Source: Candidatus Onthovivens sp. (GTDB taxonomy: Bacteria; Bacillota_I; Bacilli_A; RFN20; CAG-826). From it: DNA of 64,000 bases. The notes beneath the pieces are model-generated. The model did not search any database and was not told where the DNA came from. It was given only the letters and a program-made list of their open reading frames with translations. Made by a program: the position numbers and the translations under genes. The stretch is taken from positions 937-64,936 of the forward strand of contig DBFJOT010000052.1 of the NCBI GenBank assembly GCA_048405595.1, given 5' to 3'. Positions 9,214 through 38,500 of the stretch are shown piece after piece. Numbering within the stretch: the stretch's first letter is position 1; each line of letters starts with the position of its first letter.

Positions 9214-9290
9214 TGGTGACCTATACGGGATTCGAACCCATGAATGCATGCGTGAAAGGCATGTGAGTTAAGCCACTTCTCCAATAGGCC
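9214..9290 (-). tRNA. tRNA-Glu (anticodon UUC)
   Basis: Hand-folded cloverleaf. Acceptor GGCCTAT/ATAGGTC, anticodon stem CATGC/GCATG, loop CTTTCAC, T arm ATGGG-TTCGAAT-CCCGT, encoded ACCA 3' end. 77 nt. Confidence 0.85.
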
Positions 9291-9298
9291 ATTGAGCT

Positions 9299-9373
9299 TG
9301 GCGCTGACTATAGGATTCGAACCTACAACCGATCGGTTAACAGCCGATTGCTCTACCGTTGAGCTAAGTCAGC
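9299..9373 (-). tRNA. tRNA-Asn (anticodon GUU)
   Basis: Acceptor GCTGACT/AGTCAGC, D arm GCTC-AACGGTA-GAGC, anticodon stem ATCGG/CCGAT with loop CTGTTAA, T arm GTAGG-TTCGAAT-CCTAT, GCCA end. 75 nt. Confidence 0.9.
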
Positions 9374-9758: not shown

Positions 9759-9814
9759 AACTATTCAAGTCCTTTCAATTGCAATCATTATATCATAAAA
9801 GATAATTACGTAAC

Positions 9815-9862
9815 TAAAAGAAAACCTAGAAACATGAGATTAGACCCAATTGCTTCTAGGTT
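9815..9862 (-). terminator. Terminator after the pilin-like gene (end of the Tad-like operon)
   Basis: 9-bp stem AACCTAGAA/TTCTAGGTT (9823..9831 with 9854..9862) and a 22-nt loop, followed on the minus strand by UUUUCUUUU. Confidence 0.55.
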
Positions 9863-9876
9863 ATTGGTAACGCTTT

Positions 9877-10083
9877 TTAGAAAGTTAATGATCCTAATTC
9901 ACTACCACTATTTGTCGAAATAACATCAACACCAGCTGGATTCTTTGTTGGATCGAATTTTTCAAAAGACTGACTAACTTTTGTTGCTGCTCCTTGGAAA
10001 GCGGTATAAAGCGTAAATCCAATTGCTCCAAAAATACTGACTACTAATAAAACTCCTAATAATTGGCCTTTAATTTCTGACAT
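9877..10083 (-). CDS. Flp/pilin-like small protein (candidate major filament subunit)
   Basis: 68 aa. Short charged leader MSEIKG, then QLLGVLLVVSIFGAIGFTLYTAF (about 22 hydrophobic residues), then a small polar C-terminal part. AAAGGAG RBS. It is the last gene of the Tad-like operon. Confidence 0.6.
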   Translation of the reverse strand: MSEIKGQLLGVLLVVSIFGAIGFTLYTAFQGAATKVSQSFEKFDPTKNPAGVDVISTNSGSELGSLTF

Positions 10084-10104
10084 TAATCTTCTCCTTTCAA
10101 ATTA

Positions 10105-10449
10105 TTAACCATATATATTGATAACAGTGTAACGTTTTACCTTAATTTCAATTGGCTCTGTTTCAAAAGCTATTAACTTATAGTCCTTAATCAAGTAATA
10201 ACCTAAAACTTCGCCTTCTTGATAACTGTGGTCTATACTCACTGGTTCAATTCGCGCATTCGCAGATTCTAAAACATATTGTTTTAATGAATCATTAATT
10301 TCCCCTGTTCGAGAAATTTTATAACTGACGCTTAAACTTAAAGCATCTAAGTTTGTGTAATTGAGTTGGATCATTACAAAATCCACTCCGAATAAGAAAG
10401 CTATAAATATAAATAATAAAGATAGCATCATTCCGATTTTAGAAGCCAT
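10105..10449 (-). CDS. TadE-like / pseudopilin-like protein
   Basis: 114 aa. The N-terminal hydrophobic helix MMLSLLFIFIAFLFGVDFVMIQL is followed by a beta-rich domain. The start overlaps the upstream gene by 11 nt. Confidence 0.5.
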   Translation of the reverse strand: MASKIGMMLSLLFIFIAFLFGVDFVMIQLNYTNLDALSLSVSYKISRTGEINDSLKQYVLESANARIEPVSIDHSYQEGEVLGYYLIKDYKLIAFETEPIEIKVKRYTVINIYG

Positions 10450-11107
10450 TAGTCATGCCTCCTATGATATTGACAATGATCAATAACATCGTCAGTAATA
10501 TGTATCCACTTCCTAATAGAGATAAAGTTGTAAATACATCCATCTTTTTATATCTATTAAGCATATCTTCTTTTAAATAACGACTTTTAAAATTATCAAA
10601 TAAAGAGATAAATTGATTTAAATAGTTTTCAGTGAAGCCTCCATCAATCATTTGATATAAAGAAATCATTACTTCTTCTATAACTTTATTTTTGAAACTA
10701 TTTCCAAACTCAATAAAAGGTAATATGCTTTTATCATCATCTATTCTTTCTAAGAAATTAGTAATTTCTCTTTTCATTTCTATTGAAGTATATTCACTAG
10801 CTTGCTTTAAAGAACGATAGACACTTTCTTTATTACTTAGATAAATTCTTAAATAAGAAAACACTTCAATAAATTCCATTTCTAAATGTCGTCTTCTATT
10901 TTCAAGCATGTAATCGTAACGTTTAAATAAAAAATAGATGATTCCTAAGCTAACAATTAATCCAAAAGATAATAAAACTAAATTATTAGTTAAAAAATAT
11001 ATAACAAATGAGATAGCTAAACTTAATGTAATTAAACTAGTTAGAATCGCTACTTCTTTTTTTAAATCTAAATTTAATTTTTCTATCTTTTCTTTGAATT
11101 TCTTCAT
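10439..11107 (-). CDS. TadC-like platform protein (single T2SSF/GspF-type domain)
   Basis: 222 aa. Two N-terminal TM helices, a helical cytoplasmic domain and one C-terminal TM. AAAGGAG RBS 8 nt before the ATG at 11107. Confidence 0.6.
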   Translation of the reverse strand: MKKFKEKIEKLNLDLKKEVAILTSLITLSLAISFVIYFLTNNLVLLSFGLIVSLGIIYFLFKRYDYMLENRRRHLEMEFIEVFSYLRIYLSNKESVYRSLKQASEYTSIEMKREITNFLERIDDDKSILPFIEFGNSFKNKVIEEVMISLYQMIDGGFTENYLNQFISLFDNFKSRYLKEDMLNRYKKMDVFTTLSLLGSGYILLTMLLIIVNIIGGMTNGF

Positions 11108-11813
11108 GTTTAGTTTCTCCTTTATATATGAAAGCTAAATCAAATATTCTTGTGGTGTAAGCATAATAAACTCCTAAAAACATCAAATAGTATCCTAAAA
11201 TCAAAAGTGGAAAATAACTTAATGTATCTTTGACTTCTTTAACAAATGAAGATAAAGCTACTTGAAGAATCGCTAATATAATAAAAGTAAATCCCCAACT
11301 AACTAAAAAATCTCTTTCTTTTCTTTTTGACGTTAATTCGAATTCATGAATTCTATTTTCAAGATTACGAGTATCATGAATTAATAATTTAGAAATATCT
11401 AAAATGTTAGCTCCTGATTCAACATATTGATTAATGATATTGACGAAAACTGTATATAAAGGAAGTTCGAAATATTTATTCAAGTATTCGATTTTAACTT
11501 CGACGTTTAAATGATCTATTGAACTCATTTGTTGTCTTAAAGATTCACTAGCATTTTCTTTCATAGCTTCATAAGTTGCATTAATTGAATTTGTAACACT
11601 TAATGAAATAATGAAGTTATTCATAAAACTTATTGCTTCATAATTTCTATCAATCTTTTTACTAAACTCACTAGCTTTAAAATTATACAGTCCGAAAAAG
11701 AAGAGCAAATAAAGTAAACAAACAATGATAGTTAATATCAAATCTCCAGTAACTAAGTAGAAAATCCCCGTAAAACCTAAGCAAAATAGGCTATATATCA
11801 AATATTTTGACAT
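11037..11813 (-). CDS. TadB-like platform protein (single T2SSF/GspF-type domain)
   Basis: 258 aa with a 2 TM + cytoplasmic helical domain + 2 TM layout. It overlaps the ATPase gene by 16 nt and the next gene by 71 nt. Confidence 0.6.
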   Translation of the reverse strand: MSKYLIYSLFCLGFTGIFYLVTGDLILTIIVCLLYLLFFFGLYNFKASEFSKKIDRNYEAISFMNNFIISLSVTNSINATYEAMKENASESLRQQMSSIDHLNVEVKIEYLNKYFELPLYTVFVNIINQYVESGANILDISKLLIHDTRNLENRIHEFELTSKRKERDFLVSWGFTFIILAILQVALSSFVKEVKDTLSYFPLLILGYYLMFLGVYYAYTTRIFDLAFIYKGETKHEEIQRKDRKIKFRFKKRSSDSN

Positions 11814-12865
11814 GTTTTGGTCCTTCTAACTTCATCGTTATATGAATTATATTCAAGTTCATTTAATTCAAAGTCTTTTTTAAATGAGTCATTAATTTCA
11901 TCAAATTCATTAGGATAAACATATAACTTTTTATATACTGAGTTACAATTTGTACCTATTTCATCCACATATCTCACATACATTTTTTTCTCAAAATCAT
12001 AATAAGAATTTAAGTGAACAATTAATTTAAAATGATCATAGATATCACTTAGCGTTTCTTCATAAATTAAAGACTCATTTCCGATCATCGCCATACGAGC
12101 CATTCTTTTATATGTGAACTCACTTCTTTTAGAGTGAAGTGTTGTGATTGTTGGGTGGCCACTCATAACACTGCTTAATAAAGTAAGCATTTCTTTACCT
12201 CTAGCTTCACCAACAATTAGCCAATCAGGAGTACTTCTTAAAGCATTTTTAATCAATGTGTCGATATCCACTTTGCTATTTTCTGATACGCGATTAAGCC
12301 AAGTTAATGAATCGATATCTTTAACAAAATAATCCGTTTCAAGTTCGTTAATATTATCAATTGTTATGATTCGAGAAAATGGTGGCAACTTTGATAATAG
12401 ATACTTTTGAAATTCTGTTTTTCCAGTGCCTGTTTTACCACTTATAACAATTGAGTTATTACTTTTTAAAGCAAAGTTAATTAACTTATAAGCTAATGGG
12501 TTAACAAATCCATCATTATCTTTAATTCTTAATTTCTCATATCCAATTCTTATAGAGAATGTAGTCGTTTTTTCTCTATTTTTTCGACTAATTGAGCTAT
12601 GAGTCGCATTAATTCTATATCTGCCAACACTTACATCTAAAATCGGATTAGTATAACTAAAAAGCGAATCAGTTAAATTAGCTATTTGTCTAATGAATGA
12701 ATAAGCTTCATTTTTTGTGATAGATAAGTCACTTTTCAATCTACCTTTAAGATTATCTTTATAATATACAGTTTCTCCATTGTACGAGATGTCAGTAATA
12801 GAATCTTCTTTTAATAAATCTTTTAAAAAACTATTTTCAATATATTCAACAATTTTATCAATCAT
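11798..12865 (-). CDS. CpaF/TadA/VirB11-family secretion ATPase
   Basis: 355 aa. Walker A ISGKTGTGKTEF, TIDNINELE (Asp box-like), Walker B/catalytic Glu DWLIVGEARGKE, His box SGHPTITTLHS. Confidence 0.85.
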   Translation of the reverse strand: MIDKIVEYIENSFLKDLLKEDSITDISYNGETVYYKDNLKGRLKSDLSITKNEAYSFIRQIANLTDSLFSYTNPILDVSVGRYRINATHSSISRKNREKTTTFSIRIGYEKLRIKDNDGFVNPLAYKLINFALKSNNSIVISGKTGTGKTEFQKYLLSKLPPFSRIITIDNINELETDYFVKDIDSLTWLNRVSENSKVDIDTLIKNALRSTPDWLIVGEARGKEMLTLLSSVMSGHPTITTLHSKRSEFTYKRMARMAMIGNESLIYEETLSDIYDHFKLIVHLNSYYDFEKKMYVRYVDEIGTNCNSVYKKLYVYPNEFDEINDSFKKDFELNELEYNSYNDEVRRTKTCQNI

Positions 12866-13284
12866 AAATCCTTCTCCGTTACTTCAAAACTACCTTTTCC
12901 TTTGAAAGTGAATATTTTGTTATATTGACATTCAAAGTAAAGATCAATTTTTTTAATTCTCTCTGTATATGAGCCGCTACAATAAACATATTTTTTGTTT
13001 GTCTTATCGTATTTATAGTAGACAAAACCAATTTTGTATTTATCTATTTCACCTTTAAGTGTCTTTTTAAAATATGCATTAACTTCTTCTTTGAATATCG
13101 TTGGATTGTAACAAGGTTCAAAATATGTTCCTGAATAATCAATATGTAAAATAGAATTCGATACATGATTTGGTGTAAGTTCATTAAATGTTCTAGAAAT
13201 AAACATACCTTTCATTGCGATACCTGAAAAAGACATAATCGCAATCATTATCGACATTGAAAAATAAAGTATTGAACTTGTCAC
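12862..13284 (-). CDS. N-terminally anchored hypothetical protein in the Tad-like operon
   Basis: 140 aa with one N-terminal TM helix (ILYFSMSIMIAIMSFSGIAM). ATGA overlaps at both ends. Confidence 0.55.
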   Translation of the reverse strand: MTSSILYFSMSIMIAIMSFSGIAMKGMFISRTFNELTPNHVSNSILHIDYSGTYFEPCYNPTIFKEEVNAYFKKTLKGEIDKYKIGFVYYKYDKTNKKYVYCSGSYTERIKKIDLYFECQYNKIFTFKGKGSFEVTEKDL

Positions 13285-14423
13285 ACTAATTCTTCCTTCA
13301 TAAATTTTTGATAAATATCGTCGCTTATAGTTTCACTTTTAGAATCAATAATTCGATTATCTGGATGCTCGTTTAAAAATTCTACTTTAAAAGGGTAAAC
13401 AACATTAATTCCAGTAGAAAAAATATTTTTGATATATAAAGCGCACTCTACTTCTTTATACATTTCATATTTACCTTTAGGCATAAAAAATTGAGTACAA
13501 GGAGCTGGATATTCAAACTCTTTACTATTTTTACTCATTAAGTGAGTTCTTCTATCTACATAATAATTATAATTAAATGATAAGTAGTTTAAGTTATTGT
13601 AACTTGTATGACTTTTAGAAAGCCAATTTCCTACATAACCTTCAAATCTAGGATCGATAAGATCATAAGCTTTTTTCATATATCCATAATCATCTTTAAT
13701 AAATACATATGAGCTATCATAAGTTAAATACTTACGATTAAATGGGCGTAAATATATTTTTTCAACAGGAACACGCAAATAATAATTTTCATAAATTAAA
13801 GATGGTAAATTGTATATTTCAACTCTAATTTCTTCATTGCTAAGTAATCCATTTTTAAATTTTGCATACCAGAAAACTCTTAGTTCTTTAGAAGTTAAAA
13901 CAATTTCTTTAGGCTTACTTAATTTGAAATCAACTTTATTAATGACATCTGGATTAAGCGGCTCATAGCAGCTAATAGTAAATGTTGCCCATGATTTCAT
14001 TTTTGTAAAATCGATAATTAAATCAAACGGAGTTCTAGTGTGATAAGTCTTTTTAGGAATATGTTTTTGTCCTAACACATATGTTTCACCTTCAGCCGTA
14101 GTCATTGCAAACTTTATATATAATGATTCATACGTAAAATGAACTATATTGACACTAGTTTTATAAGTATCGCCAGTATAATCATCTATATTTATATAAA
14201 AATCTTCAATGGTAGCAAAATCATGTTGCGAAATAGGGATATTTACTATATCACCTGGATCTGGTAATGTTCTTTCAAAGTCATATCTAGGTATAATTTT
14301 TTTATCTTTAGCATCAATCGCTTCATAATCAAACGCTCTATTTATCTTATTAGTTGCTTCATTTTGAAACCCAACCGATAACAAAGAAGCACTTAATGAT
14401 AATAATTTAATAAGTTTAATCAT
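13281..14423 (-). CDS. Secreted hypothetical protein, first gene of the Tad-like operon
   Basis: 380 aa. Signal-peptide-like N-terminus MIKLIKLLSLSASLLSVGF. AAAGGAGG RBS. Tyr/Asn/Lys-rich with no recognisable motif. Confidence 0.6.
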   Translation of the reverse strand: MIKLIKLLSLSASLLSVGFQNEATNKINRAFDYEAIDAKDKKIIPRYDFERTLPDPGDIVNIPISQHDFATIEDFYINIDDYTGDTYKTSVNIVHFTYESLYIKFAMTTAEGETYVLGQKHIPKKTYHTRTPFDLIIDFTKMKSWATFTISCYEPLNPDVINKVDFKLSKPKEIVLTSKELRVFWYAKFKNGLLSNEEIRVEIYNLPSLIYENYYLRVPVEKIYLRPFNRKYLTYDSSYVFIKDDYGYMKKAYDLIDPRFEGYVGNWLSKSHTSYNNLNYLSFNYNYYVDRRTHLMSKNSKEFEYPAPCTQFFMPKGKYEMYKEVECALYIKNIFSTGINVVYPFKVEFLNEHPDNRIIDSKSETISDDIYQKFMKEELV

Positions 14424-14572
14424 TTAACCTCCTTTCGCCTTCTTAGGCCCTTTTCACCAATCACAAACAACTGAACTTTCAATTTTTTCATTTTTTCTTA
14501 AATATTTTTTATCACAACTTAATTTATGATATTTAAATTCAATTTGTTTAAAAATATTTCTACTTTTTACCT

Positions 14573-14612
14573 CCTTTACTAACACAAAAGATTGAAGATA
14601 GGTTTTTTTCAA
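14573..14612 (+). repeat. Copy A of a 40-nt intergenic element (CCTTyACTAACACAAAAG-N12-TTTTTTTCAA)
   Basis: An identical 13-mer ACTAACACAAAAG and 10-mer TTTTTTTCAA occur at the same 25-nt offset as in copy B (32403..32442). Confidence 0.7.
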
Positions 14613-14660
14613 AATTCATAGAAAATATTTAAAATTATTTATGTGTTACCTACATAAAAT

Positions 14661-14668
14661 GATAGAAT
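14661..14668 (+). promoter_or_regulatory. Extended -10 promoter element of gmk (likely leaderless mRNA)
   Basis: TGATAGAAT ends 6 nt before the ATG at 14675. There is no Shine-Dalgarno in between. Confidence 0.45.
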
Positions 14669-14674
14669 CTATCT

Positions 14675-15217
14675 ATGATTATTCTTATAGGACCTAGCGC
14701 AAGCGGAAAAACAGAGATTGCTAAATATTTAATATCTAATTTTTCTTTTGAAAAATTTGTTACAACAACTACTAGAGCACCTAGAGTTGGTGAAATTAAC
14801 GATGTCGATTATCATTTTATTGATACTCAAAAATTTAAAGACTTAATTTCTAAAAATAAATTCATTGAATACGTTAATTATAACGATAACTTTTATGGTA
14901 CAACTTTAGAAGAAATTGATGATAAAAAAGTATTAATCTTAGAACCAAAAGGTTTGATTGCATTCAAAAAATTAAACGATTCAAAAATCGTATCTTTTTA
15001 TATCGATGCTTCTTTAGAAACCAGAAAAGAAAGAATGATTTTAAGAAAAGACGATCCTAAAGAAATTACAAAGCGTATTGAAAATGACGATATCTATTTC
15101 GAAAGCGCAAAAAAAGAGGCATCATTTATTATCAAAAATAATAATGACACCTCTATTAAAGATTCAGCTAATAAGATTTATGAAATTTATCAAGATGTTT
15201 TAAGTAAACTTAATTAA
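14675..15217 (+). CDS. gmk: Guanylate kinase-family protein
   Basis: 180 aa. P-loop IGPSASGKTE, TTTRAPRVGEINDVDYHFI and FIEYVNYNDNFYGT. Confidence 0.8.
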   Translation: MIILIGPSASGKTEIAKYLISNFSFEKFVTTTTRAPRVGEINDVDYHFIDTQKFKDLISKNKFIEYVNYNDNFYGTTLEEIDDKKVLILEPKGLIAFKKLNDSKIVSFYIDASLETRKERMILRKDDPKEITKRIENDDIYFESAKKEASFIIKNNNDTSIKDSANKIYEIYQDVLSKLN

Positions 15218-18376: not shown

Positions 18377-20656
18377 CTATTTGTTCTTTAATTGACTTGC
18401 GTAATCGATTTGACCTTCTTCACTAATTTGTGTGAGGTTTTGTGTATTCATACAATCAACAACCAAGTCTCTTGCGCGTTGGAGAGAACTATCACTCTTA
18501 ACTCTAAATACGAGAGGAATATCTCTATAAAGTTCTTTGAATGATGCATCACCAACTGGAACTGCTGTGTTTAAGTAATTCTTTGGATCTAAAGCTAAGT
18601 AAATCTTTAGATGTGACCCACCCATTGTAATCTTACAATAAGTTTTCTTATGTAATCTGAACGTATCTCCACTATTACTAACTCTATCTTTTAATCCGTA
18701 ACTCATTAATAAATTCTTGAGTGAATTATAAGCTAATACAAGGTCAGTTCCGCTTGTAAGCAATTTTTCTTGGAAATTAAGTTTGACAGCTTCAACTTTC
18801 TTAATTTCTTTTTCTTTTCCTCTAATTTCTGGTTGTGGAATTAAAGGACGTTTAGCTGGTTCAACAGGTGTTTCTTTAACAGTTGGAACTTCTTTAATCA
18901 CTTCTTTAATAATTTGTTGAGGTTTTTCAACTTCTTTAACGTAAACTGGTACTTCTTGAATAGTTTCTTTTTCTTCAACTTTAATTGATTTTAAAGCTTC
19001 TTGAAGTTGTGTACTAATTAATGTACGTAATTCTTCTTCATCAATTGTTGCTTCTTCCTCTTCTGGAGTTTCTGGAAGTGGGAATTCTTCAACTTCTTCT
19101 TCAATCTTTGTTGGAATAGCAACAACGATTGGTGGAATAATTTTTTCTTCTTGTGCAGTTGGAAGAACAGCTTTTGATTCTTCTTGAATTTTTGCTTCTT
19201 CTGTTAAAGCTTCATCTAAATGAGTTCTAATTTCCTCAGCAGGTTTAACTTCTTCAGCCTTCTTTTCTTCAACAGGTTTTTCTTCTGCTTTTGGAAGTAA
19301 ATCTTGAACACTATCTTTGATTAATGTTTTTAAATCATCAAGAGTTAAAACATCATAATCATCTTCGATAGTATGTGTTTCTTGTAAATCCTTTGTTGCT
19401 TCAAGAGCTACTTCAGGAGTAATTAAATTATTTTCTTTTAAGATATCATAGACAGCACTCTTAATATCGTCTTTTGTTAATGAATCATTAGTTGATGTAA
19501 CTGGTGCTGGTTGAGGAGCTACTGTTCTAGCTCTACTTGTTCCATAAATTGATGTTGTATTTTCATCAATTTGGTTACTTCTTAATTGATTTTCATCACG
19601 TCCGTTTGTGATATATTGGACGATTAATGGAGCGTTATTTCCGGTATGAACTGTATTTCCACCTGCAGGAATCGTATTTACTTGAGCGCCATATGGGTAA
19701 GGACCATAGCCATATTGATTCATATATGGATTTGGATTAGCACCTGTGTATCCCATAGCTGCTTGTTGTTGTTGGACGTAAGGATTATTGCTTTCATAAG
19801 CATTTGCATCCTTCTTACCTTTTTTACCTTTTTTGCTTTTTTCAGTTTGTTGATTAGCAATATTTTCGTAGCCGTGGTTTTTATAGAATTGTTGTCTTCT
19901 CTTTCTTTCGGCTTTTTCAAGATAATCATATTTATGTTGATGTAAGTAAAGCGGAATACCAACATAGATATTTGCGATTGCTTGCCATAATAATGGGAGA
20001 AGCATAATTAATAAGACAACTAATCCAACGACTAATGTCCAAGCTTTAACTTTTGTACCCATTCCGAAAGCAGGATTATTGCTGACGGATAAAATATTCT
20101 TTAAGAGTAAGAATAATGGTCCAGTTGTAGCATTTCCGCCACCTGCGATTTGATATGCTTCATTTCCATAAATCGCGCCATGAAAACCAACGATTAAGAA
20201 TGAGATACAAAATGTTGGAATAGCAAACCAAATAATATTGAATAAACTTGATTTTTTCTTTTTGTAAATAAATAATCCGAAGATTAATGTGTAAAGAACA
20301 TATAAACCATAGACTGCAATAACTAATGCAAATCCATAGAATGTTAATGAGTTAATAAAATTACCTGAAACCCACCATGAAGCTTCAAATAAATGGTTAA
20401 AGAAATTGAAATATTCTTTTCCCCATAATTTGAGTCCTGGCCACCATGTATTCCAGAATGCATTTTGGAATGCTGCACTGATGGTTTCCATTTTAGTAAA
20501 CTCAGAAAGAGCAACCGCTGGAGCGCCAAATACTAATTCGTTAACACCTGCTTGAACAAGGTTAGTTGTCATAAAGGTTAAGAAAAAGAATAAGACAGCT
20601 AATCCACTAAATAATGTAGTTAATAATATACCTTTTGTAATTCTTCCCTTAGTCAT
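18377..20656 (-). CDS. Large membrane protein, paralog 1 (N-terminal polytopic domain, long disordered linker, conserved C-terminal domain)
   Basis: 759 aa. About 6 TM helices, a basic stretch, a Q/N/Y/G/P-rich segment and an E/K/P/V-rich linker. The C-terminal roughly 130 aa are shared with 20672..22636. GGGGAGG RBS. Confidence 0.75.
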   Translation of the reverse strand: MTKGRITKGILLTTLFSGLAVLFFFLTFMTTNLVQAGVNELVFGAPAVALSEFTKMETISAAFQNAFWNTWWPGLKLWGKEYFNFFNHLFEASWWVSGNFINSLTFYGFALVIAVYGLYVLYTLIFGLFIYKKKKSSLFNIIWFAIPTFCISFLIVGFHGAIYGNEAYQIAGGGNATTGPLFLLLKNILSVSNNPAFGMGTKVKAWTLVVGLVVLLIMLLPLLWQAIANIYVGIPLYLHQHKYDYLEKAERKRRQQFYKNHGYENIANQQTEKSKKGKKGKKDANAYESNNPYVQQQQAAMGYTGANPNPYMNQYGYGPYPYGAQVNTIPAGGNTVHTGNNAPLIVQYITNGRDENQLRSNQIDENTTSIYGTSRARTVAPQPAPVTSTNDSLTKDDIKSAVYDILKENNLITPEVALEATKDLQETHTIEDDYDVLTLDDLKTLIKDSVQDLLPKAEEKPVEEKKAEEVKPAEEIRTHLDEALTEEAKIQEESKAVLPTAQEEKIIPPIVVAIPTKIEEEVEEFPLPETPEEEEATIDEEELRTLISTQLQEALKSIKVEEKETIQEVPVYVKEVEKPQQIIKEVIKEVPTVKETPVEPAKRPLIPQPEIRGKEKEIKKVEAVKLNFQEKLLTSGTDLVLAYNSLKNLLMSYGLKDRVSNSGDTFRLHKKTYCKITMGGSHLKIYLALDPKNYLNTAVPVGDASFKELYRDIPLVFRVKSDSSLQRARDLVVDCMNTQNLTQISEEGQIDYASQLKNK

Positions 20657-20671
20657 AGAATTGTGCCTCCC

Positions 20672-22636
20672 CTATTCTTCATCTTCACCATCGTCGAAAT
20701 CGTCATTTTCGAATTCAACGCTGTTAAGATCTGTTGCCCAATCACGTGTTTCAAGTTGCTTGACTTGTTCAAGACCATGTTTATCCATACAGTCTCTAAT
20801 CAATTCTTCGCCTCTTCTTAATGATAAGCCACTCTTAACTTTGAAGACTAATGGTGTTTCTTTATAAATTGCTTTACTAGAAGCATCTTTAATTGGATAA
20901 GTTGTATCAACATAATCTGCAGGATTTAATGCAAGATAAAGTTTTAATGATTTACCAGCAATTGTAATCTTACAATAAGTAACACGATGTAATCTAAATG
21001 TGTCGCCACTATTTGAAACTCTGTTGTTTAATCCATAAGATTTTAATAATGATTTTAACTCATTATATGCATCTCTTAATCCTTGATCTGCACTTTCCAT
21101 TCTGACTATAAATGGAATTCTAATAATTTTTGGTGTTCCATTACTTGTTAAAGGAATGTCAGCAGGATATTCTTTTTTCTCTTCTACTTCAGGAGTAGGT
21201 GTTTCTTCTTTTGCTTCTTCGACTGTTTCAACTTCTGGAGTTGTTTCTTCAGCTTTTTCTTCTGGAAGTTCTTCAACAACCGTTTCTTCTACAACTGTAT
21301 CTGGAGCAACAGTTTCATCGATTACTTCTGGAGTAACTTCAGTTTCAACAGTTTTTGTTTCTTCAACTGGAGTAGTTTCTTCTACTACAGGTGTTTCACT
21401 AACTTCTTCAATTTTTTCTTCTTTAACAGGAATTTTTATTTCGACTGGTTTTTGGATAACTGTTTCTTTAGTGATTACAAATTCGCTTAAAGCTTTTGAA
21501 AGTTCTTCAGCGATAATTTCGTGAATTCTTTCGGTGTTTAATTTTGCCTTTGGTTCACTTTTAGGTGGTTCAGGCTTTTTTACAGGTTTTTGTTTGAATT
21601 CTTCACCTGCACTTGCTGGCATAGCGAAGACGATTGGTGAAGGATAAATTTTCTTTTCTTCTTCTTGTTCAAATGAAGAAGCGCATGTTTCTTCTACTTT
21701 AAGTTTTTCGTCAGCACTTTTATTTGAGTTTGTTGCTTTGACGATTGCTTCAGCGATTAATTGTGCGTTTTTTTCTTGTTTATATTGATCAGCGAGTTTT
21801 AAAGCTTCTTGTCTTTCAAATTCATCTCTAACTACAGTTCTAACTTCATCAGCAGTTAATGATTTTTGAACGATTGTTTGATTTGGATAAGATGTATCTT
21901 GTGATTCGAAAATAGGACCACTCTTACCATATTTATCATAGCGTTTTAAAATTAAAACACCTTTCTTCTTTGGTTCAGGTTGAACAATTGGAGTTTCAGT
22001 AATTTTTTCGACTTGTTTTGTTGTGACTGTTTCAGTTGCAATTGCAATTTCTTCTTTCTTAAATAATCTAACTAATGTTACAAAGAAGATTCCGATAACA
22101 CCAATTAATGAGAATAAGATAGCAATAACTAAGCAATAAGCATAGATTGACCATCCAAAGTTAACACCTTCTGCTTTAAATAAAAGTAATTCAGCAAATT
22201 GTTTTGCCAACAAACCAGGTTGAATATATGCTGGGTTTAAATAGTTGCTGTAATATAATCCTAAATATGCATAGAGAATTCCACCACAGAGTACTAAATT
22301 TAAAATACTAACAAAGATGTATTTAGCTTTCTTTTTAGCACAAGCAATTGTGAATGCGATAAAGAACGCTAAACCTGTTAATGTAATTCCGATATACCAA
22401 ACGATATCAGCATAAAGATGTGAGAAGTCCCAAAGCATACCCTCTTTTAATGCTCCGAAAACATCTACATAGGTTCCAAATTCATTGAACCAGTTAACGG
22501 CTTTAGGAACAACATTTCCGCCTTCATTTAATGATCCGGATAAGACTGTTCCAAGTAAGATTAACACCCATGTGACAACTGTCCATGTAATAGTCCAGAT
22601 TGTCCAGTGTCTTAGCGTATGGTTTTTCTTTTTCAT
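20672..22636 (-). CDS. Large membrane protein, paralog 2
   Basis: Same architecture as paralog 1. The linker is T/E/V/P-rich, and the C-terminal SNSGDTFRLHRVTYCKITIAGKSLKLYLALNPADY...PLVFKVKSGLSLRRGEELIRDCM matches paralog 1. The start was moved to MKKKNH (22636), which has a GAGGGAGAG RBS. Confidence 0.75.
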   Translation of the reverse strand: MKKKNHTLRHWTIWTITWTVVTWVLILLGTVLSGSLNEGGNVVPKAVNWFNEFGTYVDVFGALKEGMLWDFSHLYADIVWYIGITLTGLAFFIAFTIACAKKKAKYIFVSILNLVLCGGILYAYLGLYYSNYLNPAYIQPGLLAKQFAELLLFKAEGVNFGWSIYAYCLVIAILFSLIGVIGIFFVTLVRLFKKEEIAIATETVTTKQVEKITETPIVQPEPKKKGVLILKRYDKYGKSGPIFESQDTSYPNQTIVQKSLTADEVRTVVRDEFERQEALKLADQYKQEKNAQLIAEAIVKATNSNKSADEKLKVEETCASSFEQEEEKKIYPSPIVFAMPASAGEEFKQKPVKKPEPPKSEPKAKLNTERIHEIIAEELSKALSEFVITKETVIQKPVEIKIPVKEEKIEEVSETPVVEETTPVEETKTVETEVTPEVIDETVAPDTVVEETVVEELPEEKAEETTPEVETVEEAKEETPTPEVEEKKEYPADIPLTSNGTPKIIRIPFIVRMESADQGLRDAYNELKSLLKSYGLNNRVSNSGDTFRLHRVTYCKITIAGKSLKLYLALNPADYVDTTYPIKDASSKAIYKETPLVFKVKSGLSLRRGEELIRDCMDKHGLEQVKQLETRDWATDLNSVEFENDDFDDGEDEE

Positions 22637-22661
22637 ATTTCTCTCCCTCAAACCTCACTAA

Positions 22662-32459: not shown

Positions 32460-34943
32460 TTATCTTTTTTTCAGATGAGTTATTTTTAATTCGCTATTAG
32501 CAAAAAATATTTTTGTTTTTTCAGGATTCCCTAACCAATTCTTATCATTTAAGTAATCTGGAATTGTATTAGCCCCAAATAGAAATACATTTAGAGTTTT
32601 ATCTTCGTATGGATAAAAAATCGGTGGTTCTTCATTTGATTCTGCTCGAACAATATTTAATTTACTTCCTAGTCTCACTTTATTAGCGATAATTTTGCTA
32701 TTCACACATAAAGTAACCCATAAATTTTCATCTTTACCGCTACAATCATTGCCTTGAACAACAAATTCATCGACTTCAACATTACAAGTTGGATAAAAAT
32801 AACTTCGAGTTTCTAAAACAAGTCTATCAAGTTTAATTGGAACATCAGAATATAAATTCCGATCACTTCGACTATAAACAATAATTTCTTTATTATTGAA
32901 ATTTTCATCTAACCATAAATTTATATTCATGCACCTTTTTCCTGGAACAAATTCTTCTAATTCGAGAGTATCAAAATTAAAATGTTTCTTAGCAATTTCT
33001 TTTAATCCATCACCAGTAATCAACTTTTTAATCTTTCCAAAATCTCTATTAAATTCAATCGGCAAAACTTTAACTTGATCACTAAGTTCAACCGTTACAT
33101 CTCCATTTTGAACAAAACCATATTCTCCAATTCTCATTATAGTTTTAGTTTTAACGTTTAAAGGATTACCTAACCTTACATATTTTACTTTTGGACAATT
33201 AATAAAGATGTCTTCATTTAATTTAGACTTTCCATTTAAATTTCCGATATCAACCGATATTAAATTAGGTAAATTATCAAATGCTCCGCTTTCAATTTGA
33301 ACAGTTTCACTTTCAATAACTAAATGTTTAATTGAATTGTTATCTTTTAAAGCGCCTTTTTTAATCTTATCAACAGTAAAATCATCAATCGCTGAAGGAA
33401 TATAAAGAGTTGCAGTATCGTCTTCAATAGAAGTAATTTCAGCAGTTTTGTTTTTTATGCTATATGAGTAAGCAATTTTTGAGCCACTAAAAATCGGAGT
33501 AAGGCCGATATCGTGATCGAAATTATAAATAAAGTCGAATTCTAAAGTATCATATTCATCAATATAATATCTTTCAATAATTCTAGATTCGTCACTTGAT
33601 GTTCTTGGCAAATGAACTTCTTCGTCATATTTGACTGTAAGTTCTGGCAAATAACAATCATAAAATGAAATTGTATAGGTATTTGCTTCATAAATTGCGT
33701 CTAGAGTAACAACATCATCGAAAATAGTATTTTCATTGATTGGTTTATTGTTATATCTGAATTCAATAAACTTATATCCTTTTTTAATTATTTTAGGCAA
33801 ATTATATAAGTCATCAAAATAAAAATTATCAATTGTAAGTGGGTAATTAGGATCAATAAAAGATCCGCCATTTAGATTTAAGAAAGCTTTAGTCTCATAA
33901 CTATTATAGATAGGAAAAATAGATAAATCTTTTTTGACTGACAAATATTCTTCACTATTCCGTTTCATAAATCTTTTATTAGGTATTTGAGGTAAGATTG
34001 GTGGTTCAACTTTATCTAAATATAAAGCCTCTTCTTCAGTAACTAAAACACCTTTATCGTTATAAAATTTAACATTAAATGATTTTTTATTTAATTTGCC
34101 TGTAATCTTAATGTCACTATTAATAGGAGTTGAAAAATCAAATGGTTGATCATTTAAATAATAACCTTCAAGTTCATATCCTTCATGACGATAAATTAAA
34201 TTTTTAGCAGTTTTTCCATGATAAACATATTCTTTAATTTCTTCACCGCTCAAATCAAAATAATAAGTTACTTCGTGATAATTATCTAAAGTATTATTAT
34301 TTTCATCATCTTTAGAACCATTATTTTCAGTTGTTGTAACATTATTTATAGAAGTTAACCCAAAAACAAGAGAGGTTGTAAGCAAAAGGATATTCGATAA
34401 AATAAGAAGCATAATTAAAAATACAGAAGACTTTTCACTTCTTTTTTTAGGTTTAACTATATCAACCATATCAGTTGCTTCTTGAACAACTACTTTCTTT
34501 TCAATTATTCCAGAATAAAATTCCTCATAATTTACGTGATAAAAATTAGCAATTTTAATAAACTCTAGTGTATTAGGAAAAGATTCACCATTTTCCAATT
34601 TAGAAACACGTGTTTTATTAATGTTTAATTCATTTGCGAAATCGGCTTGAGTAATTTGAGCCTTTTCTCTTAAAAATTTTAATCTAGCTGTAAACTTTTC
34701 CGCCTCAAAAGGAGGGATTTCTTTATATTCCTCAATATGATCAATATCTGCATTTAAGAAACAATCTAAACTTACATTTAAAATTTCTATAAGCTTACCA
34801 ACGAGTCTTATATCAATTTTAACATCCCCTGTTTCAAATTTACGGATTGCCTGTGGAGTATAATTTATCGAATCCCCTACTTCTTGAAGAGAAAGCCCCA
34901 AAGCCTTTCTTCTAGCTTTGATAAATTCATTCAATTCCATCAT
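32460..34943 (-). CDS. Membrane-tethered regulator: two XRE-type HTH domains + TM + extracellular Listeria-Bacteroides-type repeats and BspA-like LRR
   Basis: HTH1 is FIKARRKALGLSLQEVGDSINYTPQAIRKFETG and HTH2 is LKFLREKAQITQADFANELNINKTRVSKLENG. The TM is VFLIMLLILSNILLLTTSLVFGL. The repeats are of the form ...GYELEGYYLNDQPFDFSTPI.... An LRR-like part follows (IESGAFDNLPNLISVDIG). The likely start is MMELNEF (34943). Confidence 0.75.
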   Translation of the reverse strand: MMELNEFIKARRKALGLSLQEVGDSINYTPQAIRKFETGDVKIDIRLVGKLIEILNVSLDCFLNADIDHIEEYKEIPPFEAEKFTARLKFLREKAQITQADFANELNINKTRVSKLENGESFPNTLEFIKIANFYHVNYEEFYSGIIEKKVVVQEATDMVDIVKPKKRSEKSSVFLIMLLILSNILLLTTSLVFGLTSINNVTTTENNGSKDDENNNTLDNYHEVTYYFDLSGEEIKEYVYHGKTAKNLIYRHEGYELEGYYLNDQPFDFSTPINSDIKITGKLNKKSFNVKFYNDKGVLVTEEEALYLDKVEPPILPQIPNKRFMKRNSEEYLSVKKDLSIFPIYNSYETKAFLNLNGGSFIDPNYPLTIDNFYFDDLYNLPKIIKKGYKFIEFRYNNKPINENTIFDDVVTLDAIYEANTYTISFYDCYLPELTVKYDEEVHLPRTSSDESRIIERYYIDEYDTLEFDFIYNFDHDIGLTPIFSGSKIAYSYSIKNKTAEITSIEDDTATLYIPSAIDDFTVDKIKKGALKDNNSIKHLVIESETVQIESGAFDNLPNLISVDIGNLNGKSKLNEDIFINCPKVKYVRLGNPLNVKTKTIMRIGEYGFVQNGDVTVELSDQVKVLPIEFNRDFGKIKKLITGDGLKEIAKKHFNFDTLELEEFVPGKRCMNINLWLDENFNNKEIIVYSRSDRNLYSDVPIKLDRLVLETRSYFYPTCNVEVDEFVVQGNDCSGKDENLWVTLCVNSKIIANKVRLGSKLNIVRAESNEEPPIFYPYEDKTLNVFLFGANTIPDYLNDKNWLGNPEKTKIFFANSELKITHLKKR

Positions 34944-35161
34944 TAACAATTTTAGCCGATATATTCGGCTTTTTAAACAAAAAATCATTAAATATTCTTT
35001 TTAGTTTAAAAATTCCTTATATCGTAACTATTAAATTTAAACTAAAACCATTAAATTATAAGTATAAGGTTAAACCAAATAAAACCTTATAAAATCTATC
35101 CGATTTAAGTTAGTCGGGTAAAGAAAATATCATTATATTTTGCGATTTAGGGGTTCGAAAA

Positions 35162-35599: not shown

Positions 35600-38500
35600 T
35601 TATTCAGTTAATCTTAAACGTAATTTAACTTTTTCTCCGTGATAAAGAATTGTGATTTCTTGTTCTTCATATAAAGGATATGAATAATCGATATAATCTT
35701 TAATATCTTTAAAAGTAATGTCTTCAATAAGTTCATTTACATATATACCATGATCTCTTTTACTATAAGGTAAATAAATAAAGTGTTTCGTTTCTCTAGT
35801 AACATTTAAAACATAATCATCGTTTAAAGGATTCGAAACGCTAATATCACTATCAACTCTCATATCTTGATCCTCAACATTATATGGTTTAACGACATTA
35901 TAAATCACTTCGATAGATTCAGTTGTTGTTTGTAGATTTTCGTTATCAAACTTCTTTATATCAATTTTAGCTAAGCCTTCTCCGGTAAAGGATGTATCTA
36001 TATAACTATTGTTGTCATATATACTAATATATTCAGATTGCTTAAATACAGTTGATACATATTCTGGATTTTGATAATCCTCATAGACATATAAAATTCC
36101 TTTAGATATATCTCTGTCGCTGAATTTAACTTTAGAGCCGTAAACAAAAGCAAATTCATCACCAGCGTTTCCTAAAAAATATTTATCAATATATTCTTGT
36201 TTTAATCTATATAAACGAAATTCATATGGAATTCCTTGATAATAATCAGTTACTTCTCCATAACTATTTATTTCCATTTTTGTATAATCTAATTTGTTAT
36301 CAAAATCATTTGCCGTTAATTTAATATCTCTTGATTCCCTATAAGAACTATTCATCGTCATATCACCAAAATCATAATTCTCTTCAATTGTAAAATCTAA
36401 AACTTTATCTTCAAATCTAGTCGCTCCAATAAAAGAGTAATATTCGTTTTCTCTTGAGTGAATCGATTTTGAGTATGAAATAGCTTCTCTAGCATTAAAG
36501 GTTAACTCTATTTGTTTGGACTCAATATCTTTATCGGTAATAGTAACATTTAATTTTTGTAAGCCTATCATATTAAATGTATATTTTGTTTCATTAGTTC
36601 CATTAATTCCAACAATATCTAAAAAACGAAGATCTTCTTTTCTGATTTTGTAAAAAACAGTAAATTTTTCATCGACATATATTGCTTTGCAATTATAAAC
36701 ACTACCTCCACTTATCGCTTTTAAATCTATTTCTTTATTTAAAGGTACATTGAAATCATCAACGCATGTAAAATTAATTACATCTTTTGGATCATATAAA
36801 TACACAGTTCCGAATAGAAATTGTTCGTTATATTTTATAGCGACATATTGTCGGCCCGTTTTTGTTCTATCTACACCTAAAATCTCAGGAATATTAATTT
36901 CAACACCATTAAATCCACTCTTAAATTTTAAAGAAGTAGAATCGAAATCTAGAGGAAGATAATTTTCTCGTAGATTCCATAGCTCGTTGTATTCACCTTC
37001 TTGTTCTAACTTTAACGATAAATTTAAATTATCAACAGTATATGAAACTGCAATATCTTTACTGCTATCTAAGTTAAAAATTAAGATATCTGTTTTTTTA
37101 TTATTCGTACTAAATCCCTTAACTTTAGATTCATCTAATTTAATAATTTCAGTTTCTTTATTAGGCTCAGTTTTATAAAGTGTTAGATCCAACTTATCAC
37201 CTTGTTTATAATCTGTCTTTCCTTTAAGTGCATATCTAGTTACACTATTTTCAATTTGCATTTTTCCTAATAATTCGCTTTCAACGAAACTCTTATAATA
37301 AGTCTCGTCTTCTTCTGTTAATGTTTTGATGTCTTTTTTAGATGCGTTTTCAATTTCTTCTAAAATTTTATCGATATTCAAATTGCTATTAATTTCACCA
37401 ATGCTGAAATCAGTAGTATTTGTGAAACATGTATTGACATTAATAATTGAAGGATCCTCATAATTGTTATCAAAAGTAGCACTATTAAAAACATTTTTGA
37501 ATAAATAATTATTTTTTTCAATCGCTTGAGGAATAGCTTCTTTTACTAATAAAGCTTCATTTCCTAAATTCGTATAAGCTCTCATGAAGGCTTTACTTGC
37601 ATGAATAAACGATTCTGAATATTTAATATCTTGTGAGTTATTAAATAGCACTTTTATGAAATTTAATTCATTTATAGTTATATCTTTTGCTATAAAGCCA
37701 ATAAATTTAAAGACTCTATATAAATGATGAATATCTTTAGTTATTTCAGGCATTAATTCTTTGTATTTAGTTAAAATCCAACCAGAAGAACTTCTTAATT
37801 CATAAGGAGCCACATTATCGTTATTCATATTATCGATAAAGCCTAAGGCATTTAAAAATATCGGAAAACTATCTTTATTACAGAATCCTTCAGTTATTAA
37901 TTGACCAAAAAGGTTACAAGCTTCAGCGAATTCTTTTTCATTTCCTTCAAAACTTCCTGACATTAAAAACTTAAAAATCGTTACTGTATGCTTTGCAATT
38001 GTGTCTACATCTCTAGTAACAGCAAAAATTTTGCCCCAAAGTTTATATCCAAATTCACAAAGAATATAAAGGTTGCGTTGTAAGTCTTCATCAAAATAAT
38101 TATTGCCTTTAGGCGCCAAAGTGGTATCTACTTTAAATTGTTCTACAAATTCTTTAACACCTTCAATATTCGAATAATGTTCAAGTATATATTCTTTCTC
38201 TTGAACATATTGCATAGATATGAAATTGTTCGTATTTTCAAAGTAATTAAAATCGTTAACAATAACTGTGGTACCAAAATAGAAAGCAGCTACACAAGTA
38301 TACCAAACTGGTAAAGACATGTTATCATAGACATTTTTGAAGTATGTCATGATTTCTTTTACATCGTCTTTATTACTCCAATCATATTTATTTTGTGAAA
38401 TTTTTTCTAAAGTTCTGTTGAAAACGATTTTATCAGCATCAAGTAATTCTTTTTTAGTAACACCTGTTTTTTGAGGTAAAGTAGCAAACTCAGGATGATT

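Follow-up and report, generated by a model that had tools for sequence, protein, structure and literature searches.

What does a tightly packed bacterial operon assemble when only one of its seven products, an ATPase, is recognised by domain libraries? The question is raised by seven co-directional minus-strand open reading frames (ORFs), here termed g1 to g7, at positions 9877-14423 of a 64,000-nucleotide stretch of contig DBFJOT010000052.1 from Candidatus Onthovivens sp.; this whole 64-kb stretch is referred to as the window. Based on comparisons with Tad loci, plasmid gene blocks and related chromosomal loci, we propose that the operon encodes a stripped-down, strongly diverged filament machine of the Tad type (type IVc-like), a reading that we consider reasonably probable. 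It rests on an intact T2SSE-family ATPase, the gene order tadA-tadB-tadC, the affinity of two membrane proteins, g4 and g5, to TadB and TadC, and pilin-like N-termini in the last two products. The underlying features, i.e. the gene order, the ATPase family, the paralogy of g4 and g5 with their TadB/TadC affinity, the conservation of the pilin N-terminus and the vertical inheritance of the locus, are established here by sequence comparison. An initial annotation of the same DNA had already described a minimal type IV filament machine; the superfamily and the Tad-like anatomy of that description stand, but g6 and g7 enter it by N-terminal features only. A Tad-like type IV filament machine is known in kind, and this form of it is newly described without constituting a new category. 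In the literature searched, we found no paper on the locus in RFN20-like Bacilli, and none treating the neighbours of the plasmid 'VirB11' genes discussed below as pilus genes.

The ATPase and the putative platform proteins

The candidate motor, g3 (11798-12865, minus strand; 355 amino acids), is a secretion/pilus ATPase of hexameric type from the T2SSE (PilT/VirB11/TadA) superfamily. Pfam T2SSE (PF00437) matches it at E = 2.5e-21 with 76 bits against a cut-off of 24.9, which upholds the earlier assignment as a CpaF/TadA/VirB11-type ATPase, and the motifs GKTGTGKT, IVGEARG and SGHPTITTLHS listed at that time are all present. Walker A, the Walker B glutamate and the His box are intact. Among the NCBIfam models, VirB11 (TIGR02788) reaches 123.9 bits (6.7e-36; cut-off 249.95), with a best stretch confined to residues 128-291, followed by the TadA-type model (TIGR03819; 97 bits, cut-off 373), FlaI (82 bits, cut-off 550) and ComGA (NF041000; 60 bits, cut-off 300); the PRK13900, PRK13851 and TrbB models score far under their cut-offs. 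By these comparisons, g3 fits no curated ATPase subfamily, and its PDB matches HP0525, afGspE, CpaF and FlaI are roughly equidistant from it. In a rough neighbour-joining distance tree of 227 columns with 100 bootstraps, whose reference sequences come from annotated plasmids and from PDB alignments and which is indicative only, the chromosomal clade containing g3 groups with 'VirB11-like' ATPases of Firmicutes plasmids (support 51-73); the Tad ATPase of pXO1 is next out (83), then HP0525-type VirB11 (70), and proteobacterial CpaF lies far away.

We note that the Asp box of g3 (residues 168-175, window positions 12340-12363) reads T-I-D-N-I-N-E-L throughout the window's clade. I-E-D is kept in deeper-branching relatives, the plasmid ATPases, VirB11 and CpaF; judged from the alignment, IDN is a clade-wide change adjoining the catalytic site.

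Directly after g3, with overlapping reading frames, follow g4 (11037-11813, minus strand; 258 amino acids) and g5 (10439-11107, minus strand; 222 amino acids), which gives the order tadA-tadB-tadC. Both are polytopic, and g4 has four predicted transmembrane segments around a cytoplasmic domain of ~120 amino acids; as a protein, it probably represents a single diverged T2SSF domain. Alignment of the two family profiles identifies them as paralogues (hhalign probability 95%, E = 3.6e-8, 170 columns). The g4 family aligns over 143 columns with a profile built from eight TadB proteins annotated by PGAP (81.8%, E = 1.1e-5), which brings EQGGNIL of g4 onto ETGGNL of TadB (signature E-x-GG-x-L); the TadC profile gives no match (2%). 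The g4 family consensus covers profile positions 1-123 of 125 in Pfam T2SSF at E = 0.07. For g5, the connection runs through the ORF at the TadC position of pXO1, which is matched by the g5 family (79.6%, E = 1.5e-5) and itself matches the TadC profile (86.5%, E = 4.5e-6). Taken individually, 9 of the 55 g5 homologues (best E 2.3e-5) and 1 of the 51 g4 homologues match PF00482.

Structure prediction is consistent with these alignments: the AlphaFold2 (AF2) model of g5, with a predicted local distance difference test score (pLDDT) of 83, superposes well only on the cytoplasmic domain of EpsF/GspF and on SpoIIIAB, at global E-values above 1. For the EpsF cytoplasmic domain (2vmb_B), the TM-score is 0.63 and the root-mean-square deviation 3.3 Å at a global E of 2.5. 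SpoIIIAB has the GspF fold. Among the TadB/TadC references compared by hhalign, signal is seen only with the eight-sequence profiles and via the pXO1 bridge, and thin proteobacterial TadB/C profiles of 2-4 sequences were negative for g4 and g5. The g4 and g5 family profiles had no match among PDB sequences, and none of the g5-family database members carries a precomputed Pfam domain. The platform evidence leans to T2SSF, with every line under curated thresholds, and we assign g4 as a TadB-like and g5 as a TadC-like platform subunit with moderate confidence from sequence. As for the half-size GspF-like pair arranged as TadB and TadC in the initial annotation, gene order, paralogy and family-profile homology support it, but the window proteins taken alone do not match T2SSF. 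Similarly, the lack of T2SSF homology that had been named there as contrary evidence is not what we find, since homology exists, though at the level of family profiles only.

Candidate pilins, leading genes and absent parts

The last gene, g7 (9877-10083, minus strand; 68 amino acids), encodes a candidate major pilin of Flp size, whose short leader is class-III-like (MSEIKG-QLLG) and precedes a hydrophobic helix and a short variable tail. Across the clade, these ten N-terminal positions vary little or not at all. M1, E3, K5, Q7, L9 and F18 are invariant in 36 homologues, and S2, G6 and G10 are conserved in at least 90% of them, in proteins that are otherwise 27-49% identical save for one close relative (73%). 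As in type IVa and Com pilins, the six-residue leader closes with KG; Gln follows at +1, and cleavage would presumably take place after G6. With such a leader and no G/XXXXEY motif, g7 does not qualify as the canonical Flp that a Tad/Flp label suggests. Despite the hypervariable tail, a terminal Leu/Ile-x-Tyr/Phe (LTF, LLF, LHY, LSY, LRY) is conserved in about half of the g7 homologues; the corresponding C-terminus in the window lies at 9877-9885.

Upstream, g6 (10105-10449, minus strand; 114 amino acids) has a pilin-type N-terminus and is a candidate minor pilin (TadE/TadF analogue). Its family starts with M-S-x-K-I-[GSA] and a hydrophobic helix, and D23, L34 and D35 are invariant. The charge pattern of both g6 and g7 fits an N-in/C-out topology, and they are the only window ORFs to show the pilin-type N-terminal pattern. 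Pfam TadF matches g6 weakly (E = 0.14, N-terminal region), and hhalign against TadE/F (4-5 sequences) is negative; g7 has no match to Pfam Flp, and hhalign against two Flp sequences is negative. Neither family profile matches PDB sequences. The two assignments, drawn from N-terminal features and context, are therefore worded as candidates: of the earlier labels 'TadE-like' for g6 and 'pilin-like' for g7, the N-terminal features remain, but profile and PDB sequence searches lend no support.

The operon opens with g1 (13281-14423, minus strand; 380 amino acids), which has an N-terminal signal or anchor, and g2 (12862-13284, minus strand; 140 amino acids), which has a GTG start in a 4-nucleotide overlap with the g1 stop and one N-terminal transmembrane helix. 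In line with the initial annotation, which saw no recognisable family in either, library scans came back empty (Pfam, NCBIfam, PADLOC and PHROG for g1; Pfam and NCBIfam for g2), and neither protein is similar to CpaB. A genome scan with one genome per species returned 72 related loci, and in 48 of these, positional equivalents of both genes stand ahead of the ATPase gene, at 11-24% identity to the window versions. The g1 equivalents (310-403 amino acids) have a hydrophobic N-terminus and evolve fast, and a database search yields no more than six homologues of g1 itself. AF2 models g1 poorly (pLDDT 54) except for a confident beta-sandwich at residues ~61-170, for which Foldseek returns generic immunoglobulin/fibronectin type III-like matches only. 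The g2 equivalents (123-158 amino acids) keep the N-terminal transmembrane helix. Positive charges after this helix in g2 (K25, R31) make it possible, by the positive-inside rule, that the C-terminal domain faces the cytoplasm; judged by its conservation, g2 is an accessory component of uncertain topology.

A further gene of ~100 amino acids, without a transmembrane segment, precedes the g1 equivalent in ~36 of the 48 loci (for example L013:6292-6612, L022:6296-6625, L036:6253-6591 and L061:6134-6436). It carries the motif INN-D/E-FF...YP-x-WW...TYYR-x-K and is absent from the window (14424-14674) and from its sub-clade, L001-L009. Pfam gives no match, and a guess at a sigma/HTH-like (helix-turn-helix) regulator found no support; the product could be an operon-specific regulator or a cytoplasmic component.

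Of the parts expected around such a machine, an A24-family prepilin peptidase was sought in three ways: Pfam on 10 small polytopic window ORFs, a weak two-sequence TadV hidden Markov model (HMM) together with a GxGD motif scan on 1343 ORFs (the window plus the 72 loci, ~1 Mb), and hhalign of orphan membrane ORFs. None gave a match. The earlier statement that there is no prepilin peptidase is hence sound for the locus, the window and the flanks of the 72 loci, but it does not extend to the genome. Absence at the locus is not unusual, because in bifidobacteria tadV is located outside the tad locus (PMC7979991). No TadZ/CpaE, CpaB/RcpC or secretin was found among the operon proteins or the scanned window ORFs, nor in the ~1 Mb that includes the related loci, where the test was the TadV HMM and motif scan, and the Pfam and NCBIfam scans agree with the initial annotation that the locus has no TadZ-type ATPase and no secretin.

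Operon layout, inheritance and relatives

The coordinates of the seven ORFs were given correctly in the initial annotation, as were their successive overlaps of 4, 4, 16, 71 and 11 nucleotides; g6 and g7 are separated by a gap of 21 nucleotides. A GGAG-type ribosome-binding site lies 5-10 nucleotides ahead of the start in all seven genes (for g1, AAAGGAGG). An intrinsic terminator (9816-9862, minus strand) closes the operon, with its main hairpin at 9823-9862 followed by UUUUCUUUU. The fold of 9800-9876 on the minus strand has -21.4 kcal/mol (z = -5.19; equalled in 0 of 200 shuffles), so the terminator noted earlier is real, a strong hairpin with a U-tract; it is missing from a simple scan because its stem has an internal bulge that the scan disallows. 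We count the translational coupling of g1-g7, the ribosome-binding sites and the single terminator in favour of the Tad-type reading. On the 5' side, a non-coding gap (14424-14674) separates g1 from a divergent plus-strand gmk-like gene at 14675. The minus-strand promoter presumably lies in this gap, where a consensus scan did not find a sigma-70-type match on that strand.

The locus is identical on 13 public contigs, and public collections hold no precomputed Pfam hit for six of the seven products; our own Pfam, NCBIfam, PADLOC and PHROGs scans likewise recognised only g3. The ORFs are not chance frames, given the 13 identical contigs, the colinear relatives and the positional equivalents of g1 and g2. 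Public gene calls place the g5 start later, giving 141 or 210 amino acids. Since the first 20 residues of the 222-residue form are conserved family-wide and it has a ribosome-binding site of its own, the long form, and hence the 71-nucleotide overlap, is probably right.

Relatives of g3 number more than 1000 in a 90% cluster database; nearly all are metagenomic, and the few named ones are labelled 'Bacilli bacterium'. The 72 related loci derive mostly from gut or rumen 'Bacilli' metagenome-assembled genomes (MAGs), Candidatus Onthovivens among them, and include two complete genomes of the cultured 'Mollicutes bacterium LVI'. Genes g3-g7 are colinear in ~55 of the 72 (~55 MAG species), and the setting in most relatives (~48 species) is that of the window, flanked by gmk-like and CNNM/CBS genes and, at the opposite end, by acpP. 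In a library of 1.84 billion proteins, the g5 family falls into 587 clusters at 50% identity; this representative-library search listed close members only and provided no remote bridge. Conserved synteny and the large family point to purifying selection on a working machine, and the syntenic position of g3-g7, mostly between gmk and acpP, to vertical inheritance and not to a mobile element. Together, these comparisons argue for a vertically inherited chromosomal locus under purifying selection.

Other classes of locus were considered as well. Readings as a defence system, a prophage or an integrated conjugative element were all rejected in view of missing library matches, synteny and the flanks. 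PADLOC and PHROG scans of the operon proteins gave no defence match, and phage families yielded only weak generic ATPase matches to g3.

Outside the clade, the closest relatives, missed in the initial annotation, are the 'VirB11' blocks found on conjugative plasmids of Gram-positive bacteria. By tblastn against plasmids, the annotated proteins nearest to g3 (~32% identity) are 'CpaF/VirB11 family' ATPases of Firmicutes plasmids, among them pXO2, Listeria pLIS33, one plasmid of Paraclostridium bifermentans and others of B. thuringiensis. Over ~330-350 aligned residues, the block ATPases share 31-32% identity with g3; for those of pXO2, pLIS33 and the Paraclostridium plasmid, the closest outside the clade, 32-37% is reached. 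The plasmid genes encode, in order, an N-anchored protein of ~125 amino acids, the ATPase, polytopic proteins of ~270 and of 240-257 amino acids, an N-anchored protein of ~120 amino acids and hydrophobic peptides of 47-49 amino acids; in L073, L074 and L079, the order is identical to that of g2-g7 in the window. Profile comparison relates g5 to its plasmid counterpart P5 (hhalign 92%, E = 6e-7) and g6 to P6 (94%, E = 1.2e-7), and gives weak relations of g2 to P2, the N-anchored protein ahead of the ATPase (59%, E = 9e-5, 103 columns), and of g4 to P4 (12%). In sequence, the plasmid peptides (...SWG-MLALVLAG...) are similar to Flp-like pilins encoded by the Tad locus on pXO1 (...ENG-MLIALAVII...). 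In pAW63, the neighbours within CDS19-25 are hypothetical and only the ATPase has been called a VirB11 homologue (PMC1196294, PMC9673590).

The window locus thus shares with this block (pAW63 CDS19-25, pXO2, pBT9727, pLIS33 and Paraclostridium) a colinear order and ATPases that group in the tree. In contrast, the plasmid blocks lie inside tra regions near VirD4, VirB4 and VirB2-like genes and the window locus among chromosomal housekeeping genes; the plasmid ATPases have 50-90 extra N-terminal residues and the IED Asp box, and no g1 equivalent is found on the plasmids. By sequence, the likeness is homology to an unnamed block and not membership of a defined family. A further copy is present at L068:5217-10343 in an uncultured Firmicutes MAG. 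In the tree, its ATPase falls among those of the plasmids (bootstrap 90); the ATPase is preceded by two N-anchored proteins, and a 536-amino acid polytopic protein follows the platform genes. This copy is probably part of an integrative or conjugative element, which would link the chromosomal and plasmid forms.

The pXO1 locus, with CpaB/RcpC (3e-13), a ParA-like TadZ and a CpaF-family ATPase, is by its sequence a bona fide Tad locus. Its TadB matches T2SSF at only E = 0.014, which suggests that a weak HMM signal is normal for Bacillota Tad platforms. Homologues of its TadC are all annotated as hypothetical and provide no bridge via annotation. As a separate observation, the ORF at the TadC position (L080:9020-9932) is interrupted in B. 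anthracis, where no coding sequence is annotated and the frame breaks after ~236 amino acids. On plasmids of B. cereus and B. thuringiensis, the homologous stretch is entered as a single hypothetical protein. It is possible that B. anthracis has an inactive pXO1 Tad locus. A more distant module occurs in the cultured mollicute LVI A0039, where the g5 family is related to the corresponding protein M5 (hhalign 71%). LVI A0039 is wall-less by electron microscopy (PMC11527720).

Weighing the readings, proposed mechanism and host

Several of these results weigh against a Tad-type machine. The best NCBIfam model for g3 is VirB11, the closest outside relatives of g3 sit in conjugation regions, and its Asp box has IDN where IED is expected. 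The window proteins g4 and g5 themselves have no T2SSF match in Pfam or NCBIfam, g5 compared directly with the TadB or TadC profile reaches ~10%, and profile-profile probabilities of 80-95%, obtained with small reference profiles of 8-9 sequences, are not decisive. The Flp motif G/XXXXEY is missing from g7, as is Glu at +5, where Ile or Val is found; no sequence method relates g6 or g7 to TadE/F, Flp or any solved pilin; and no prepilin peptidase was found anywhere in the DNA examined, i.e. the window plus ~1 Mb of related loci.

The anatomy corresponds to that of Tad/Flp loci, in particular Gram-positive ones such as those of pXO1 (Bacillus cereus group) and of bifidobacteria, in a T2SSE ATPase followed by two single-domain paralogous platform proteins, in the order tadA-tadB-tadC, in a very small major subunit without a globular head (mature g7 would have ~62 amino acids) and in N-anchored minor-pilin-like proteins; the peptidase of such loci can be unlinked (PMC7979991). 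It differs from them in the lack of TadZ/CpaE and CpaB/RcpC, both of which pXO1 has, in that no TadV was found in the window and the related loci, in a g3 that is ~100 residues shorter and under the TadA-type cut-offs, and in the g7 leader, which is six residues long, closes with KG and is followed by Gln at +1 without the G/XXXXEY motif, where Flp has a long leader. Moreover, g4 and g5 have 220-260 instead of ~300 amino acids and are undetected by standard HMMs, and the conserved g1 and g2 are extra genes without a Tad counterpart. Archaeal type IV pili (Epd-like, adhesion) have short leaders that carry a basic residue at -2 and Gly, Ala or Ser at -1; Gln is common at their +1 position and Glu is missing at +5. 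Denise and colleagues are said to have put forward in 2019 that Tad systems derive from archaeal-type machines. The His box of g3 lacks the extra residue, as in afGspE, but the platform of archaeal systems is one large protein of FlaJ/PilC type, their ATPase has ~500 amino acids, and g3 is no nearer to afGspE or FlaI than to VirB11 or CpaF.

Three other readings make use of the same genes. The machine could be a DNA-uptake (competence) pseudopilus, in which a short g7 fibre passes DNA to a ComEC-type channel and replaces a lost comG; we regard this as unlikely. In its favour, natural transformation of Micrococcus luteus depends on Flp/Tad pili, the locus belongs to the vertically inherited core genes of a clade that lives with hosts and has reduced genomes, and it has in common with the ComG pseudopilus a monoderm setting, no secretin, short leaders ending in KG and several small pilin-like proteins per operon. 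The leaders of g7 and g6 both have six residues, that of g7 ending in K-G as in Com and type IVa pilins and that of g6 with its Lys one residue further off. However, ComGB is a single two-domain protein, in place of which two half-size paralogues are found here, the FTL-x-E of Com pilins is missing from g6 and g7, and g3 scores 60 bits with ComGA against the cut-off of 300, so that the standard comG operon entertained in the initial annotation can be set aside. No comE, comF or dprA occurs in the window or the flanks so far as examined, and nothing links the locus to DNA. A piston-like device in the style of the type II secretion system (T2SS), with g1 as cargo and a short g7/g6 pseudopilus that stays within the envelope, appears very unlikely to us. 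The constant first position of g1, its signal-like N-terminus, its fast evolution as of an exposed protein, and the very short, variable tail of g7 would fit; yet a Sec signal is enough for g1 export in a single-membrane cell, there is no secretin and no outer membrane, g1 is unlike known T2SS substrates, and its model is uninformative. We know of no monoderm T2SS-like secretion system with this anatomy.

The third reading, distinctly unlikely in our view, is a domesticated conjugative remnant, where g3 would be a VirB11-type ATPase of a type IV secretion system (T4SS), g2 and g4-g7 would be accessory membrane proteins that carry DNA or protein across the membrane, and no type IV filament would be formed. 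Like HP0525, Brucella VirB11 and TrbB, g3 has a two-domain core within ~330-355 amino acids, and these VirB11 proteins provide its best single HMM (6.7e-36) and PDB match. The closest non-clade ATPases, in pXO2, pLIS33 and Paraclostridium, adjoin VirD4-, VirB2/TrbC-like and pLS20_p028-type genes, g5, g6 and g2 are homologous to neighbours of the plasmid ATPases, and the deep-branching L068 copy combines a plasmid-grouping ATPase with a plasmid-like block. The VirB11 score of 124 bits is, on the other hand, half of the 250 cut-off, the position between gmk and acpP is mostly kept across ~48 species, and the 64-kb window has no VirB4, VirD4, relaxase or VirB6/8-like gene. Instead of T4SS partners, TadB/TadC-like and pilin-like genes are coupled to the ATPase: g4 matches TadB and g5 links to TadC, platform proteins of a kind that canonical T4SSs do not have. 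The clustering with conjugative VirB11 proteins among T4SS components, which the initial annotation had considered as speaking against it, is accordingly found in one half, the rough grouping of g3 with plasmid 'VirB11-like' proteins, and not in the other, since none of the genes next to g3 in the window is a T4SS component. Small Flp-like peptides similar to the pXO1 pilins are encoded in the plasmid blocks as well, which makes it more probable that the plasmid module itself is Tad-like.

Following the Tad-type reading, we infer how a filament would form, how the pilins would be cleaved and which roles g1, g2 and g6 would have. A g3 hexamer would dock on the cytoplasmic domains of a membrane platform built from TadB-like g4 and TadC-like g5. 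ATP-driven motion would then lift g7 from the bilayer and stack the subunits into a thin, Flp-sized helical filament, which g6, possibly together with g2, may prime or cap. An unlinked A24 peptidase probably removes the leaders of both g7 and g6, cutting behind the conserved residue 6, Gly (or Ala/Ser). As a filament-associated or co-displayed surface protein, g1 could for instance act as an adhesin. Secretin, CpaB and TadZ would not be needed in a single-membrane cell that is thin-walled or wall-less, and the likely role of the filament would be attachment to the host, mucus or other cells in the gut.

A wider view, which we offer tentatively and with more doubt than confidence, joins the chromosomal and plasmid forms. 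Under this single compound proposal, the locus would be the chromosomal, vertical form of an unrecognised type IV filament subfamily restricted to Bacillota and mollicute-like bacteria, with the plasmid 'VirB11 block' as its mobile form; a Tad-like mating pilus would be encoded by pXO2, pAW63 and pLIS33; gut Bacilli with a lost or thinned wall would have domesticated the machine, which would serve as their main surface filament; and the invariant-leader pilins might rely on another processing enzyme or route than a dedicated TadV, or remain unprocessed. To our knowledge, Gram-positive conjugation is generally thought to proceed without a mating pilus.

If the Tad-type interpretation is true, a major uncultured clade of Bacilli, abundant in gut and rumen, carries a conserved filament machine unrecognised by annotation pipelines, and with it a candidate factor for colonisation, aggregation or DNA uptake. 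The 'VirB11' of pXO2/pAW63-type plasmids would then be the motor of a Tad-like module and not a T4SS ATPase, which bears on Gram-positive mating-pair formation, and the minimal part list of a type IV filament would come down to an ATPase, a pair of half-platforms, one or two minor pilins and a single tiny pilin. These Bacilli are otherwise predicted to bear few surface proteins (PMC10868615). The distantly related module in the cultured wall-less LVI A0039 makes the reading testable (PMC11527720).

Whether the host itself is wall-less, as the initial annotation had supposed from the surrounding genes, is not shown by the window, which follows genetic code 11 and whose relatives are uncultured 'Bacilli' MAGs. 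TGA serves as stop in 6 of the 39 window genes and Trp is always TGG, indicating code 11 and not the Mycoplasma code. No peptidoglycan genes occur in the 64-kb window, a length too short to establish wall-lessness. We take Candidatus Onthovivens to be placed by GTDB in the order RFN20. For this order, published analyses predict the absence of peptidoglycan in some families only (PMC10868615, PMC7301438).

Around the operon, a pair of tRNA genes, tRNA-Glu(UUC) and tRNA-Asn(GUU), lies at 9214-9373 on the minus strand, directly downstream of acpP and the operon. Further away, two adjacent minus-strand genes (18377-20656 and 20672-22651) encode large polytopic membrane proteins of 759 and 659 amino acids without a Pfam match at E <= 0.001. 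A 1294-amino acid protein (35600-39484, minus strand) with a lipoprotein-like N-terminus (...LTSC...) and no Pfam match adjoins a fused ABC/FtsX transporter at 39563-42289. Finally, the 842-amino acid product of 32460-34988 (minus strand) combines two N-terminal DNA-binding domains of the HTH_3 type, a transmembrane segment and BspA-type leucine-rich repeats, an unusual architecture for a membrane-tethered regulator.

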